Of a stretch of DNA of 17,376 nt, positions 9,703 to 14,972 are shown in pieces. Both the position numbers and the translations under genes were made by a program. The DNA comes from a virus. Lineage: Duplodnaviria > Heunggongvirae > Uroviricota > Caudoviricetes. Position 1 is the stretch's first letter; each line of letters opens with the position of its first letter. The stretch is from the IMG/VR virus record IMGVR_UViG_2541047431_000017; one strand, written 5' to 3'. The notes beneath the pieces were generated by a model. That model was not told where the DNA came from and did no database searches. It saw only the letters and a program-made list of their open reading frames with translations.

Positions 9703-10233
9703 ATGATATATCCGGAAATTACAGGCAAAAGCGGCGAACATTTACGCCTGAACACGCTGGAAGCAGTCTGGATCCAGGGGAAATTACGGATGTGGGGGCG
9801 GTGGTCGTATATCGGTGGGGGTAAATCCGGAAATATGTTTAACCGGTTACTGGTTTCGAAAAAGCTGACGAAAACAGCAGTTAATGAGGTTTTACGCAGC
9901 ATGAAGAAATCCGGGCTGGAAAAACCGGAACTTGAGGCATTTTTTCGGGATATGACCAGAGGGAAGCAGAAGAGCTGGTTGTCACATTGTACAGACACAG
10001 AGGCGTTGATTATTGATCGCGTTATCAGTGAGGTGCTTGGGGAATATCCCGGGCTAATCAATATTCTCCGGCAAAGGTACGAAGGACGGGGAATGAGTAA
10101 GAGAAAAATGGCAGAATGTTTAAATCGTACTCACCCGGAATGGTGTTTCAGCACATGTGAGAAACGTATTGCAGGTTGGTTAGCCGTGGCTGAACACATG
10201 CTTTATGTACCTATGCACGATTCATTTCGATAA
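9703..10233 (+). CDS. late-gene antiterminator Q-like protein
   Basis: ATG at 9703 (alternative GTG at 9691 overlaps the rusA stop). Last gene before a terminator-rich non-coding region that precedes the late genes. Weak resemblance to Q proteins (LRMWGRW motif). Assignment is largely positional. Confidence 0.5.
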   Translation: MIYPEITGKSGEHLRLNTLEAVWIQGKLRMWGRWSYIGGGKSGNMFNRLLVSKKLTKTAVNEVLRSMKKSGLEKPELEAFFRDMTRGKQKSWLSHCTDTEALIIDRVISEVLGEYPGLINILRQRYEGRGMSKRKMAECLNRTHPEWCFSTCEKRIAGWLAVAEHMLYVPMHDSFR

Positions 10234-10328: not shown

Positions 10329-10351
10329 AGCCACCGGAAGGTGGTTTTTTT
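10329..10351 (+). terminator. intrinsic terminator (tR'-like) in the late leader downstream of Q
   Basis: CCACC-ggaa-GGTGG hairpin followed by TTTTTTT. Confidence 0.55.
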
Positions 10352-10474: not shown

Positions 10475-10672
10475 ATGCTGAAACAGCAGGATATGACAGA
10501 AACCGCCAGAGTGGTGTTTAATGAATTAAGCGTTACCGACCCGGCGACAGTCGGGGAGATTGCGCAGAATACTTACCTTTCACGCGAACGCTGCCAGTTA
10601 ATACTGACCCAGCTGGTTATGGCGGGTCTGGCAGACTATCAGTTTGGTTGTTACAGACGCCTTCAGTCCTGA
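10475..10672 (+). CDS. small hypothetical protein (possible winged-helix DNA-binding fold)
   Basis: ATG at 10475 (MLKQQDMTETARVVFNELSVTDPATVGEIAQNTYLSRERCQLILTQLVMAGLADY...). The ORF-track GTG start at 10352 falls inside the upstream terminator and is unlikely. Confidence 0.4.
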   Translation: MLKQQDMTETARVVFNELSVTDPATVGEIAQNTYLSRERCQLILTQLVMAGLADYQFGCYRRLQS

Positions 10673-10686
10673 AGGCTTTTTTATTT
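10659..10686 (+). terminator. intrinsic terminator overlapping the stop of the small ORF
   Basis: GCCTTCA-gtcc-TGAAGGC hairpin followed by TTTTTTATTT. Confidence 0.5.
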
Positions 10687-10822: not shown

Positions 10823-11545
10823 ATGCTTAATACTGTAAAAATATCCAGTTGTGAGTTAATCAACGCCGACTGCCTGGAATTTATGCGGTCGTTACCCGAA
10901 AATTCTGTTGACCTGATAGTCACGGACCCGCCGTACTTCAAAGTGAAACCCGAGGGCTGGGATAACCAGTGGGCGGGTGATGAAGATTACCTGAAGTGGC
11001 TGGACCAGTGTCTTGCGCAGTTCTGGCGGGTGCTGAAACCTGCCGGAAGTCTTTACCTGTTCTGTGGCCATCGTCTGGCATCTGACACCGAAATCATGAT
11101 GCGTGAGCGGTTTAACGTGCTGAACCATATCATCTGGGCAAAGCCGTCCGGACGCTGGAACGGGTGCAACAAGGAAAGCCTGCGGGCGTATTTCCCCGCC
11201 ACAGAGCGCATTCTGTTCGCAGAGCATTATCAGGGGCCGTATCGTCCGAAAGATGCCGGGTATGAGGCGAAGGGTAGGACACTGAAACAGCATGTGATGG
11301 CCCCGCTGATTGCTTACTTTCGTGATGCGCGCGCTGTCCTGGGGATAACGGCAAAACAGATTGCAGATGCCACAGGAAAGAAAAACATGGTGTCGCACTG
11401 GTTCAGTGCCGGTCAGTGGCAGCTGCCGAACGAAAGCGATTATCTGAAATTACAGGCACTGTTTGCCCGGGTGGCAGAAGAGAAGCATCAGCGGGGTGAA
11501 CTGGAAAGCCCCACCACCAGCTGGTGGATACGTATGCCTCTCTGA
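10823..11545 (+). CDS. DNA methyltransferase (amino-MTase), N-terminal portion; gene apparently frameshifted
   Basis: DPPY catalytic motif (VDLIVTDPPYF). The frame ends at 11545 while the downstream ORF, in another frame, carries the AdoMet motif. Confidence 0.7.
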   Translation: MLNTVKISSCELINADCLEFMRSLPENSVDLIVTDPPYFKVKPEGWDNQWAGDEDYLKWLDQCLAQFWRVLKPAGSLYLFCGHRLASDTEIMMRERFNVLNHIIWAKPSGRWNGCNKESLRAYFPATERILFAEHYQGPYRPKDAGYEAKGRTLKQHVMAPLIAYFRDARAVLGITAKQIADATGKKNMVSHWFSAGQWQLPNESDYLKLQALFARVAEEKHQRGELESPTTSWWIRMPL

Positions 11546-11880
11546 ACCGACAGTATGCGGAGCTGCAGAGTGAATATAAGCATCTGCGGCGGTATTTCGG
11601 TGTGACGGTGCAGGTGCCGTACACCGATGTGTGGACGTATAAACCGGTGCAGTACTATCCAGGGAAACATCCGTGCGAAAAACCGGCAGAAATGTTGCAG
11701 CAGATAATCAGCGCAAGCAGTCGTCCGGGAGACCTGGTTGCAGATTTCTTCATGGGGTCGGGGTCGACAGTGAAAGCAGCGATGGCGCTGGGACGTCGTG
11801 CAACTGGCGTTGAACTGGAGACTGAACGTTTTGAGCAGACGGTGCGGGAAGTACAGGATTTAATCATTCGTAACGGATGA
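11524..11880 (+). CDS. DNA methyltransferase, C-terminal portion (AdoMet-binding FxGxG motif)
   Basis: Motif DFFMGSGST. This frame is open from 11500 and has only a GTG at 11524, so it reads as the continuation of the upstream ORF after a frame change between about 11500 and 11545. Confidence 0.7.
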   Translation: MDTYASLNRQYAELQSEYKHLRRYFGVTVQVPYTDVWTYKPVQYYPGKHPCEKPAEMLQQIISASSRPGDLVADFFMGSGSTVKAAMALGRRATGVELETERFEQTVREVQDLIIRNG

Positions 11881-11920
11881 GATTGCGGAGTTAATCATGC
11901 GTCGTTATTATTCAGCAATC

Positions 11921-11996
11921 GGCCCTTTAGCTCAGCGGTGAGAGCGAGCGACTCATAATCGCCAGGTCGCTGGTTCAAATCCAGCAAGGGCCACCA
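11921..11996 (+). tRNA. ileZ: tRNA-Ile2-like (anticodon CAU, ileX/ileZ type)
   Basis: Cloverleaf folded by hand: acceptor GGCCCTT/AAGGGCC, D-arm GCTC/GAGC, anticodon loop CTCATAA, T-arm GCTGG-TTCAAAT-CCAGC, encoded CCA. Close to E. coli ileX as I recall it. One A-C mismatch at the top of the anticodon stem. Confidence 0.8.
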
Positions 11997-11997
11997 A

Positions 11998-12063
11998 CCG
12001 CCACTAGCTCATCAGGAAAGAACGTCACCCTGTGCGAGATTCGGAGTCCCCGGTGGCGGTCCA
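11998..12063 (+). other. tRNA-like remnant (possible degenerate argN-type tRNA)
   Basis: Perfect 7-bp acceptor-like pairing (CCGCCAC / GTGGCGG) followed by T-CCA, but only 66 nt and the internal arms do not fold into a clean cloverleaf. Confidence 0.3.
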
Positions 12064-12076
12064 TTATCGGTATTCT

Positions 12077-12153
12077 GCGTTGTTAGCTCAGCCGGACAGA
12101 GCAATTGCCTTCTAAGCAATCGGTCACTGGTTCGAATCCAGTACAACGCACCA
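12077..12153 (+). tRNA. argO: tRNA-Arg (anticodon UCU)
   Basis: Acceptor GCGTTGT/ACAACGC, D-arm GCTC/GAGC, anticodon arm ATTGC-CTTCTAA-GCAAT, T-arm ACTGG-TTCGAAT-CCAGT, encoded CCA. Confidence 0.85.
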
Positions 12154-12471
12154 CACCACACTTATCTGCCCTGACTCTCTTTTGCGGGCTTTTTATTACA
12201 GGAAAGACACCGGACAGTGAAATGTTAAATGCCTCACAATTCAGGCAGTTGACTGTTGCCTGACATGCTGAGCGTTTGTTAAAAAAATCCTGCATGATGA
12301 ATCCCCCTGAGCGGCGGGGCATAATGACAGATGTTTGGTTGCGTATTGTATAGGCAAGTTGCGGATTCTGTCTGGTCATTGCAGAATTCACCGGGAGGCA
12401 CCCGGCATCATGCTGTATACAGAGATTAGGCATATATCCAGGCTTCTCATCGCAGGAGCCTTTTTACATGC

Positions 12472-12497
12472 AAAAAAAAGCCCGAGTGGGTTCGGGC
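12472..12497 (-). terminator. terminator-like hairpin oriented for the minus strand
   Basis: A8 run then GCCCGA-gtgggt-TCGGGC on the + strand, i.e. hairpin plus U-tract when read on the minus strand. Confidence 0.35.
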
Positions 12498-12557
12498 AAC
12501 AGCATGAGATACTTGCATTGTCATTTTTATCGTGTGGATTTTAACCAGGGTTTATAA

Positions 12558-12588
12558 GGCTGCGCAACTGCGCGGCCTTTTTCGTTTT
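12558..12588 (+). terminator. putative intrinsic terminator upstream of the esterase gene
   Basis: GGCTGCGC-aact-GCGCGGCC (one mismatch) followed by TTTTTCGTTTT. Confidence 0.4.
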
Positions 12589-12676
12589 GCGGGCTGCGGT
12601 TCTCCTCTTTTGATTCTCCTTGTGGCCGGACCGTGGCCCGCAACTGTTGAGGAAAATCCCGGAAAGGGGAGGAATA

Positions 12677-14527
12677 ATGACATTTAAACATTATGATGTT
12701 GTCAGGGCGGCGTCGCCGTCAGACCTTGCGGAAAAGCTGACACACAAACTGAAAGAGGGCTGGCAGCCGTTTGGTAGTCCGGTGGCCATAACCCCTTATA
12801 CCCTGATGCAGGTGATTACAGCAGAAGGTGATGTGGTGGTCAGTGGTGCAACTGAGCCGGATTGGTACTACGTCATCGTACTGGCCGGGCAGTCCAATGC
12901 CATGGCTTACGGTGAAGGGCTTCCGCTGCCGGATTCATACGATGCTCCGGATCCGCGCATTAAACAGCTGGCGCGCCGCAGTACAGTGACGCCGGGTGGG
13001 GCTGCCTGCAGATATAACGATATTATTCCGGCCGACCACTGCCTGCATGATGTGCAGGATATGAGTACGCTGAATCATCCGAAGGCAGACCTGAGCAAAG
13101 GGCAGTACGGCTGTGTCGGCCAGGGGTTACATATTGCCAAAAAACTGCTCCCGTATATCCCGAATAACGCGGGGATCCTGCTGGTACCATGCTGTCGTGG
13201 TGGTTCGGCATTTACCCAGGGCGCGGAGGGGACATTCAGCGAGTCCACGGGGGCCAGCCAGGATTCGGCACGCTGGGGGGTGGGCAAACCGTTATATCAG
13301 GACCTGATTGCCCGCACCAAAGCTGCATTACAGAAGAACCCGAAAAATGTGTTGCTGGCGGTGTGCTGGATGCAGGGAGAGTTTGACATGAGCGCCGCCA
13401 CCCACGCACAGCAACCTGCGCTGTTTACAGCCATGCTGACACAGTTTCGTGCTGACCTCTCCGTGTTTAACGCGCAGTGCCATGGTGGCAGTGCTGCAGA
13501 TGTGCCGTGGATTTGTGGTGACACGACGTATTACTGGAAAAATACATACGCTACCCAGTACGACACCGTGTACGGCGGGTATAAAAACAGGGAGAGTGAG
13601 GGCGTTTATTTTGTGCCCTTCATGACAGACGGTAACGGCGTCAATACCGCCACTAACGCGCCGGCAGAAGATCCGGATATTCCGGCATCAGGATATTACG
13701 GTGCGGCATCGAGAACGAATGGAAACCAGGTATCATCAAACCGCCCGACACATTTCAGTTCATGGGCGCGCAGGAGCATTATTCCGGATCGTATGGCAAC
13801 CGCTATTCTGAACGCAGCCGGGCGCACCTCAGCCTTCATCAGTGGTAAGGCACCGGAAATCAAACCCTCGCCCGGCGGCAACACGCCATCGGGTCCGTCT
13901 GCAGATACGTCCGTTCGCACAATCTCCCTGCTGCCGGCAGCCGGAGAGGCTGCTGCGCAGGGCTGGAGCATTAAGGATGGCGGAATTCAGTTGTCAGATG
14001 GTGTATTTAAGATCACCAGGCAGAGCAATAAAACCTGGTCCCTGACGCATCCGGTGGATGACGCAATTACCCTGCTGACACAGGGCGGCAGACTGACCTG
14101 TAAGTTCCGCCTGTCAGGCGCACTGACCAACAATCAGTTCGGGCTGGGGATTTATCTGTATACGGATGCTCCCGTTCCTGATGGTGTGGCGATGACGGGT
14201 ACCGGTAATCCGTTCCTGATGTCGTACTTCACTCAGACCACTGACGGCAGAGTGAATCTGATGCATCACAGGAAAGCCGGAAACACGAAGCTGGGGGAGT
14301 TCGGCGATTACGGTAACGACTGGCAGACGCTGGAGCTGGTGTTCACCGCCGGCAGTGCCACGGTTACTCCGAAACTGAATGGAGTGGCTGGCCCGGCATT
14401 CCAGGTTATAAAAGACAGTCTGACACTGGGACTGAATGCGCTGACGCTGACGGATGTTACAAAAAATGCAGCGTATGGCGTTGAGATAGAAAGTCTGGTG
14501 CTGGAGATAAATGCACCGGCAGCATAA
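12677..14527 (+). CDS. prophage sialate O-acetylesterase, NanS-p-like (SGNH/SASA hydrolase with N-terminal DUF1737-type domain)
   Basis: ATG at 12677 with a GGGAGG SD (the ORF-track TTG start at 12620 is less likely). N-terminus MTFKHYDVVRAASPSDLAEKL... and the GQSNA catalytic motif. Occupies the position downstream of the tRNA cluster that Stx-phage nanS-p genes occupy. Confidence 0.75.
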   Translation: MTFKHYDVVRAASPSDLAEKLTHKLKEGWQPFGSPVAITPYTLMQVITAEGDVVVSGATEPDWYYVIVLAGQSNAMAYGEGLPLPDSYDAPDPRIKQLARRSTVTPGGAACRYNDIIPADHCLHDVQDMSTLNHPKADLSKGQYGCVGQGLHIAKKLLPYIPNNAGILLVPCCRGGSAFTQGAEGTFSESTGASQDSARWGVGKPLYQDLIARTKAALQKNPKNVLLAVCWMQGEFDMSAATHAQQPALFTAMLTQFRADLSVFNAQCHGGSAADVPWICGDTTYYWKNTYATQYDTVYGGYKNRESEGVYFVPFMTDGNGVNTATNAPAEDPDIPASGYYGAASRTNGNQVSSNRPTHFSSWARRSIIPDRMATAILNAAGRTSAFISGKAPEIKPSPGGNTPSGPSADTSVRTISLLPAAGEAAAQGWSIKDGGIQLSDGVFKITRQSNKTWSLTHPVDDAITLLTQGGRLTCKFRLSGALTNNQFGLGIYLYTDAPVPDGVAMTGTGNPFLMSYFTQTTDGRVNLMHHRKAGNTKLGEFGDYGNDWQTLELVFTAGSATVTPKLNGVAGPAFQVIKDSLTLGLNALTLTDVTKNAAYGVEIESLVLEINAPAA

Positions 14528-14800
14528 TAAAAAAAGCCAGCGACTGACCTGAAAGAAGACGCTGGCTAAAAGGCCTTATATGTTTGTAGAGACTTATTTT
14601 TCACAGACAGCAATGATGCCTGTCAATATATTATCAATATGCGGATTGTTTCAGTTACAGATGCTTTATTAAGGAAAAAAACAGCCAGCACTGACTTTCG
14701 GTGGAGAGGTGCTGGCTCAAAAGGATAGATGTACTTCACATGTTGCTTCTATATGGCAGTACATTTTCTGACAGACAGTGACGGATGTTGTCAAGATATT
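14527..14800. repeat. degenerate tandem duplication of a hairpin-containing unit of about 140 bp
   Basis: Two units each start with an A-run and a 7-9 bp GC-rich hairpin (14536-14566; 14661-14695) followed by aaaagg. Downstream parts align at about 70 percent (tcacagacagcaatgatgcctgtcaatatatt vs tctgacagacagtgacggatgttgtcaagatatt). Confidence 0.45.
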
Positions 14801-14891
14801 GTGTCATTTATAACCTGAATCGGGGGAGGCCGGAATGTTATCTGGCATTTTTAGCAGAGCCTGAATGCCATAATCACGGCTCCCGGCGTTG

Positions 14892-14928
14892 GCCGTCAGT
14901 GGGTGACACTGGCGGCTTTTTTGTTTTC
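14892..14928 (+). terminator. intrinsic terminator immediately upstream of the holin gene
   Basis: GCCGTCAGTG-ggtga-CACTGGCGGC (one mismatch) followed by TTTTTTGTTTT. Confidence 0.5.
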
Positions 14929-14972
14929 CTTTACTTTCATTTTCTGTCGGCGGTGACGGAGACATACACCAG

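Follow-up and report, generated by a model that had tools for sequence, protein, structure and literature searches.

A convergent small RNA pair between the tRNA module and the esterase gene of an stx-less prophage of E. coli O157:H7

RESULTS

A "moron" site with resident small RNA genes

The DNA between the last tRNA gene and the esterase gene of this viral record (the window is the whole analyzed stretch of 17,376 nt) most probably represents the "moron" site that follows the late promoter of prophage Sp9, with no protein-coding cargo, with its resident non-coding genes kept, and with the junction at which Stx phages carry stx unoccupied; we put the probability of this reading at about 90%. 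The window as a whole belongs to E. coli O157:H7, in which it is a lambdoid prophage. Positions 11921-12700 match prophage Sp9 of strain Sakai exactly (100%), the Sakai feature enclosing the match is annotated "prophage Sp9; lambda-like phage," and the stretch of about 1 kb around the spacer shows 100% identity with the chromosomes of hundreds of O157 strains. Within 11921-12700 there is no difference from the EcOnc28/EcOnc03 locus of Sakai Sp9, where the same convergent small RNA (sRNA) pair lies between argO3 and ECs_1781; outside this interval, the two prophages differ by a methylase frameshift, an IS insertion, and an esterase-holin spacer of the Stx1a-phage type. The arrangement itself is already known, and what the spacer contains was published in 2014 (PMC4104026): convergent sRNA pairs were described at the "moron" site downstream of PR' in Sp3, Sp4, Sp9, Sp10, Sp11, Sp15, and Sp17 (Tree et al. 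2014, Mol Cell 55:199; PMC4104026), with Sp5 (stx2AB, then EcOnc27 and AsxR) named as the model case (Tree 2014; PMC4104026).

The features of the interval and its surroundings are as follows.

9703-10233: Q-like gene (Pfam DUF1133, 367 bits; Phage_antitermQ, 35 bits)
10823-11880: N6_N4 DNA methylase, split in the window
11883-11911, + strand: putative tRNA promoter pT (TTGCGG, 17 nt, TATTAT), read from the sequence
11921-11996, + strand: tRNA with anticodon CAU (ileZ3; tRNA-Ile2 type) (ARAGORN; Rfam tRNA, 70.9 bits; RefSeq and Sakai annotation)
11998-12063, + strand: argN tRNA-Arg relic (alignment to 933W argN)
12077-12153, + strand: tRNA-Arg(UCU), argO3 (ARAGORN, anticodon TCT; Rfam, 71.4 bits; Sakai annotation)
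12168-12195, + strand: decayed argO terminator, holding repeat copy 1 at 12180-12190 (alignment to the 933W "terminator upstream of the stx genes")
12196-12262, + strand: junction (position of the stx promoter and stxAB in Stx phages) and conserved STnc100 upstream region with a presumed promoter (933W homology break)
12263-12471, + strand: STnc100-family Hfq-binding sRNA gene, EcOnc28 of Sakai Sp9 (Rfam RF02076)
12532-12473, - strand: EcOnc03, short sRNA of the prophage "anti-sRNA" family, terminator 12497-12480 (exact match to the printed EcOnc03 sequence)
12533-12580, - strand: candidate EcOnc03 promoter region (TAAAAT about 7 nt upstream of the 5' end), read from the sequence
12556-12595, + strand: third terminator, hairpin 12556-12579 and T-rich tail with repeat copy 2 (10 pairs, 7 of them G-C; fold -19.5 kcal/mol)
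12587-12643, + strand: long hairpin in the esterase leader, arms 12587-12600 and 12630-12643 (inverted repeat and fold)
12677-14527, + strand: NanS-p-type sialate O-acetylesterase gene, ECs_1781 homologue (Pfam DUF1737, SASA, and DUF6645; annotated in genome records)

An earlier note on this DNA, made from the sequence alone, had proposed the order Q-like gene, methylase, tRNA(CAU), tRNA-Arg(UCU), and esterase, and Pfam, ARAGORN, and the genome annotation bear it out. The same note had described some 520 bp of non-coding DNA between the last tRNA and the esterase gene. The length holds (12154-12676, 523 bp), but the description does not, as Rfam places two sRNA genes above gathering score in this spacer; the RefSeq and other genome records examined annotate zero genes there. 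The methylase gene is interrupted in the window by a 1-bp frameshift, an observation absent from the earlier note.

A tRNA module with a dead member and a weakened terminator

Positions 11883-11911 align with the stretch of phage 933W annotated "pT; putative tRNA promoter," and transcription from this element would cover ileZ, the argN relic, and argO. A strict promoter scan of the window made no call for pT or for either sRNA promoter. ARAGORN labels the first tRNA (anticodon CAT) as Met, while RefSeq and Sakai label it tRNA-Ile ileZ3. Between the two intact tRNAs lies a decayed third one that the first reading had missed: relative to 933W argN, a 12-nt deletion takes out the anticodon arm and a further 1-nt insertion is present, and neither ARAGORN nor Rfam makes a call at 11998-12063. 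The operon of ileZ, dead argN, and argO would end in a terminator that has itself decayed, with a predicted fold of -6.0 kcal/mol (z = -1.6) in the window versus -14.8 kcal/mol (z = -4.0) in 933W.

An STnc100-family sRNA gene fills the left part of the spacer

The plus-strand sRNA gene matches the STnc100 model over its full length (model positions 1 to 206 of 206) with 175.2 bits against a gathering score of 47 and an E value of 2e-40 (Rfam scan with curated thresholds), and its 3' end is formed by the terminator at 12440-12461 and a U-tract. The product, EcOnc28, would be an RNA of about 210 to 240 nt on the late-gene strand, beginning approximately 24 to 38 bp past the argO terminator. An Hfq-CRAC peak named EcOnc28 was reported in Sp9, on the plus strand and roughly 60 to 100 nt from EcOnc03 (Tree 2014, Table S2; PMC4104026), and this peak position falls in the STnc100 copy of the window. 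Seven STnc100 copies folded jointly with RNAalifold gave 34 pairs, 5 of them changed on both sides, which in so small and related a sample is supportive only. The closing helix and the terminator are kept across all seven copies, and the compensatory changes include an A-U pair of the window's own in the closing helix. For the Stx2-phage copy of this family, EcOnc27, overexpression is reported to raise fimZ and espA transcripts. By blastn, no Salmonella phage copies of the sRNA cassette were found; all 353 records recovered are E. coli or Shigella phages, mostly Stx. Any link to Salmonella therefore comes from the literature and from the name of the Rfam family.

We also considered whether the spacer encodes one or more small proteins, instead of or besides the sRNAs. 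The statement in the earlier note that the spacer has no ORFs holds for annotated and conserved ORFs but not for mechanical ones, since ORFs of 51 to 116 aa overlap it (e.g., 12335-12544, 69 aa). Hypothetical proteins are annotated at the equivalent place in YYZ-2008 and phi296, and in EDL933 several STnc100 copies are reported to be transcribed with ribosome footprints, one 209-nt copy having a ribosome coverage value of 1.73. Against these points, RefSeq records annotate no gene in the spacer, and the Rfam structural model fits from end to end. Where the ORFs lie, alignment of the STnc100 copies shows indels of 1, 2, 4, and 18 nt, whereas compensatory changes preserve the RNA helices. We consider protein coding in the spacer extremely improbable, and we read its left part as an sRNA gene.

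EcOnc03 is a sibling of AgvB and AsxR with its own 5' region

The minus-strand partner, EcOnc03, is about 51 to 60 nt long and lies tail to tail with the STnc100 gene, one base apart. The RNA of 12532-12473 contains exactly the EcOnc03 sequence printed in Fig. S4 of Tree 2014 and has a predicted fold of -13.9 kcal/mol with a terminal hairpin and U-tract. EcOnc03 was assigned to the minus strand of Sp9 with northern bands of 56, ∼54, and 51 nt that were destabilized or lost without hfq (Tree 2014, Table S2; PMC4104026), and primary 5' ends were mapped by RLM-RACE (Tree 2014; PMC4104026). Its expression and Hfq dependence were shown in Sakai (Tree 2014; PMC4104026), a strain that differs elsewhere from that of the window. 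A literature search for the name EcOnc03 outside Tree 2014, and for its sequence string, returned nothing further.

Rfam assigns 12532-12473 to AgvB (RF02702), a label that sits at threshold (56.6 bits against a gathering score of 56) and would mislead. Alignment traces this score to the shared 3' scaffold: EcOnc03 reads CGAUAAAAAUGACAAUGCA where AgvB has CACAACA, its mimic of the GcvB R1 target. In RNAduplex comparisons with MG1655 GcvB, EcOnc03 reached -11.5 kcal/mol, with 54% of shuffles as good, versus -19.8 kcal/mol and 1.3% for AgvB. We therefore rejected AgvB as the identity of this RNA: it has no CACAACA motif, its GcvB pairing is no better than that of shuffles, and its sequence is that of EcOnc03. 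AgvB1 and AgvB2 (EcOnc01a and EcOnc01b; Sp10 and Sp17; RF02702) share the position, the 3'-most ∼42 nt, and the terminator of EcOnc03, but the 5' region of EcOnc03 lacks the GcvB mimic, which makes it a sibling and not AgvB. The AsxR model (RF02703) scored below threshold as well (46.8 bits against a gathering score of 63); in a duplex comparison with FnrS by a simple 5'-end method, AsxR, the positive control, was itself no better than shuffles. EcOnc03 has the traits of the EcOnc01-03 group, namely a length of 51 to 60 nt, a 3' region of ∼42 nt with a terminator, a variable 5' region of 14 to 18 nt, and a convergent longer sRNA.

EcOnc03 would thus combine the 3' Hfq-binding scaffold of AgvB and AsxR with a 5' seed of its own, and because of that seed it should base-pair on targets of its own. 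The published RNase E-CLASH tables contain about 85 hybrid rows named "EcOnc3," and cation transport and iron homeostasis (mntH, fieF, bfr) are enriched GO terms among the targets. The portions of these tables consulted give mRNA and rRNA partners for EcOnc03 and no sRNA partner. As far as they go, these data make mRNAs of cation and iron homeostasis, rather than GcvB, the candidate targets.

Terminators and a repeated 11-mer near the esterase gene

Terminators in both orientations, as the earlier note had observed, were recovered by a scan for terminator-like hairpins, which found three in the spacer: 12440-12461 and 12556-12579 on the plus strand and 12497-12480 on the minus strand. The two sRNA genes account for two of them. 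The third is kept in 933W, phi296, Lahn2, Nil3, and the Stx1c phage, and the arms of the adjoining esterase-leader hairpin (GCGGGCTG and CAGCCCGC) are conserved in 933W and phi296.

The earlier note had also pointed to a partial direct repeat near 12181 and 12584. The repeat is real, an exact 11-mer (TTTTGCGGGCT) at 12180-12190 and 12585-12595. Two exact copies within 523 bp exceed chance expectation; allowing one mismatch, the 11-mer matches the window three times where 0.52 matches would be expected, a number attained by 4 of 200 shuffles. A core resembling TTGCGGGC occurs at both places in phi296, Lahn2, and Nil3. If the two copies were insertion or recombination boundaries of a mobile stx cassette, such as a target-site duplication or att-like sites, they should flank the stx insertion point, as the earlier note had suggested checking by alignment. 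The alignment places them otherwise. Just left of the insertion point, copy 1 makes up the 3' arm of the argO terminator together with its U-tract. Copy 2 is found ∼350 bp to the right of that point, past both sRNA genes, within the T-rich tail of the third terminator, and it also forms the 5' arm of the esterase-leader hairpin. The stx cassette of Stx phages falls wholly between copy 1 and the STnc100 gene, and the copies therefore do not bracket the insertion point. Each copy belongs to a different hairpin, both repeat-bearing elements occur whether or not a phage has stx, and the repeat is not exact in 933W, where copy 2 is TATTTCGGGCT. A target-site duplication is ruled out by position and by the presence of the repeat in stx-positive phages, and we give almost no credence to the broader idea of the repeats as cassette boundaries. 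We read them as parts of two structural elements.

The stx site of Stx phages lies between the argO terminator and the STnc100 gene

No Stx-like coding sequence was found, in agreement with the earlier note. In tblastn searches of the whole window with the A and B subunits of Stx2 and Stx1c, the best E value was 1.3, with only noise in 12154-12676, and sensitive blastn with stx cassette DNA returned a sole match to the STnc100 upstream part (12221-12262), with no stx coding or promoter remnant.

The flanking context of the stx locus is nevertheless present when the window is set against 933W, YYZ-2008, and an Stx1c phage: Q, an upstream tRNA module, and a downstream sRNA cassette with a SASA esterase. 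In 933W the order is ileZ-argN-argO (argO ending at locus position 2372), terminator (2386-2409), stx2A and stx2B (2463-3703), STnc100 (3778-3983), AsxR on the opposite strand (4037-3985), and esterase (from 4190), whereas in the window ileZ, the argN relic, argO, and the decayed terminator are followed directly by STnc100/EcOnc03 and the esterase. Homology between the two extends from the tRNA module across the argO terminator as far as about 12195 and picks up again near 12220-12234, in the conserved sequence upstream of STnc100, so that ∼24 to 38 bp in the window stand where 933W has ∼1.37 kb (the stx promoter and stxAB). The 933W/Sp5 stx2 locus, in which the STnc100 copy is EcOnc27, shares with the window the tRNA module, STnc100, the 3' scaffold of the convergent sRNA, the third terminator, and the esterase, and its sRNA cassette is ∼80% identical. 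It differs in having the stx promoter and stxAB, an intact argN, an intact argO terminator, and, as its short sRNA, the anti-FnrS RNA AsxR, with another 5' seed. In the Stx1a phage YYZ-2008 the sRNA cassette begins 54 bp past stx1B, and in the Stx1c phage two tandem STnc100 copies follow stx1cB. As these alignments have it, the convergent sRNA cassette is directly downstream of stxB in Stx2a, Stx1a, and Stx1c phages, and the site of the stx cassette in Stx phages is the stretch between the argO terminator and the STnc100 gene.

A probably unoccupied junction rather than a deletion scar

The earlier note had called the interval a possible stx-empty site or deletion scar. Part of this stands, in that the interval is a positional homologue of the stx locus without stx. 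It is not "empty," however, because the convergent sRNA pair of Tree 2014 is resident at the Sp9 "moron" site, and scar is not borne out either, given the lack of any remnant and a junction shared with other phages.

A scar would mean that the ancestor was an Stx phage and that a deletion, bounded by the argO terminator on one side and STnc100 on the other, removed its stx promoter and stxAB. Both flanks are indeed homologous to the stx flanks of 933W, with only the short joint described above in place of ∼1.37 kb, and repeated stx loss from prophages has been offered as one possible reading of synteny data (Zhu et al. 2026; bioRxiv 10.64898/2026.05.13.724894). Several observations weigh on the other side, beyond the clean absence of residual stx coding or promoter DNA. 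The junction (12175-12252) is 96 to 97% identical in seven stx-negative phage records (phi296, phi315, phi367, TL-2011a, two PPwrbA prophages, and Lahn2) in which the sRNA slot further downstream is unlike that of the window. It occurs at 769 places in 491 of 5,426 complete E. coli genomes, including O55:H7 and O111:H8. The window "junction" sequence is also found between the tandem STnc100 copies of the Stx1c phage; its right part is therefore what normally precedes an STnc100 gene, not a joint created by deletion. A second stx-less junction, tighter than this one, is present in Nil3. We consider a scar very improbable. The interval is homologous to the stx site and lacks stx, it does not appear to be a deletion scar, and we read the junction as an unoccupied cargo site. 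In place of a site that was never occupied, there may have been an old, clean loss of stx that then spread.

The stx-negative Traversvirus phages (phi296, phi315, phi367, TL-2011a, the PPwrbA prophages, and Lahn2) resemble the window in having a tRNA-to-NanS spacer of ∼530 bp with an STnc100 copy; relative to the window, their argN is intact and their STnc100 body divergent. In the phi296-type phages the minus-strand slot is taken by an unrelated unit, which has a terminator but corresponds to none of AgvB, AsxR, and EcOnc03. The PasD sRNAs of EPEC likewise lie upstream of a sialate esterase gene in lambdoid prophages and are reported to be structurally related to STnc100 with different seeds (Zhu, Shabalina, Storz 2026, bioRxiv 10.64898/2026.05.13.724894); the sequences are too distant for BLAST, and this likeness is drawn from the description in that paper.

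DISCUSSION

From left to right, the interval comprises the tRNA operon, EcOnc28, the convergent EcOnc03, a forward terminator with a structured leader, and the esterase gene. During lysogeny, each sRNA would be made from its own promoter and stop at its own terminator, and the three forward terminators (the decayed 12168-12195, 12440-12461, and 12556-12579) would prevent polymerase unmodified by Q from entering the esterase and lysis genes. Once the prophage is induced, polymerase that starts at PR' and is modified by Q would be expected, from lambdoid late-gene biology, to read through everything. In Stx phages, stxAB with its own promoter precedes the STnc100 gene and follows the argO terminator or, in phages that lack the tRNAs, Q/PR'.

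The minus-strand slot has at least four occupants: AgvB, AsxR, EcOnc03, and the unrelated unit of the phi296-type phages. Tentatively, and with somewhat more doubt than confidence, we suggest that it may be a swap-in site for short regulators built on one Hfq-binding scaffold, with EcOnc03 as a third specificity, through which a toxin-less prophage might rewire host metal homeostasis from the position that is the toxin site of its relatives.

These comparisons correct the view of the tRNA-to-esterase DNA in toxin-less O157 prophages as a landing pad or scar: it is a conserved sRNA cassette. Because this cassette is blank in genome annotation, the misreading will recur. The mapping places toxin cassettes between the argO terminator and the STnc100 gene, which is useful for comparing stx-positive with stx-negative prophages. 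It also helps in interpreting the results of a 2025 machine-learning study, in which variants in EcOnc27 and the stretch downstream of stx2B helped to predict haemolytic uraemic syndrome (HUS).

Mosaic structure of the prophage

The sequence of the esterase-holin spacer shows that the prophage in the window is a mosaic, since this spacer is of the Stx1a-phage type and not of the Sp9 type. It shares 99.3% identity with the corresponding spacer of Stx1a phages (e.g., YYZ-2008) and is unlike that of Sakai Sp9, which is only 150 bp long. Starting at about 12750, the window and YYZ-2008 are ~99% identical over more than 4 kb. Within the spacer are two units that resemble each other, one beginning at 14529 and the other at 14677, and both contain a terminator-like hairpin on the minus strand; in YYZ-2008 (NC_011356), the PasA sRNA has been placed at the esterase-holin spacer position (Zhu et al. 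2026, bioRxiv 10.64898/2026.05.13.724894).

Features of the window outside the tRNA-esterase interval
3677-4991, IS3-family element of the IS1203/IS629 type
7146-7295, hok/sok locus, a type I toxin-antitoxin system (Rfam sok match of 104 bits; related genomes have hokD annotated)
10823-11880, DNA methylase gene in two ORFs, with the break near 11505
14534-14967, esterase-holin spacer (434 bp)

The IS3-family element contains an ALIL frameshift pseudoknot (4016-4132) and is inserted at the position occupied by a DUF1627 gene in other O157 strains. Those strains carry this IS at other places in the prophage: FDAARGOS_293 has it within the antirepressor gene, and F3398 has it after hokD. The hok/sok locus, in the early region, adjoins the paa adhesin gene. 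A 1-bp deletion that turns GGAAAAG into GGAAAG, in a run of A, splits the methylase gene; in F3398 the RefSeq annotation is a frameshifted pseudogene of equal length (1,058 bp), and the gene is unbroken in Sakai and FDAARGOS_293.

Between the two live tRNA genes lies a dead tRNA-Arg gene, argN (11998-12063), which received no call from ARAGORN, Rfam, or RefSeq. Relative to argN of the Stx2 phage 933W, it has lost the anticodon arm through a 12-nt deletion and carries a 1-nt insertion, while pairing in the acceptor stem is kept with both sides changed (CCGCCAC/GTGGCGG versus CCGCCAT/ATGGCGG).

The sRNA cassette in other phages

The copy number of the sRNA STnc100 at the toxin locus differs among phages, as seen from phiSTEC1589-Stx1c, which carries two copies in tandem (3305-3516 and 3578-3791 of its locus record) immediately 3′ of stx1cB; its stx1c has no upstream tRNA genes. 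In the stx-negative phages phi296 (3680-3900 of its locus record) and Lahn2, the minus-strand slot past STnc100 is occupied by another kind of unit, which bears a terminator (GCCCGCG...CGCGGGC, with an A-run ahead on the plus strand). This unit matched no Rfam family at gathering score and therefore may be an undescribed sRNA.

Hairpins downstream of the Q-like gene

Two hairpin candidates follow the Q-like gene. The stronger scan match (10659-10676) is downstream of a small ORF, annotated in Sakai as a 198-nt hypothetical gene. The other (10331-10351; CCACCGGAAGGTGG followed by seven T) lies ~100 nt past the Q-like gene stop and looks like the true tR′. If so, the PR′ transcript would be short and StxS-like.
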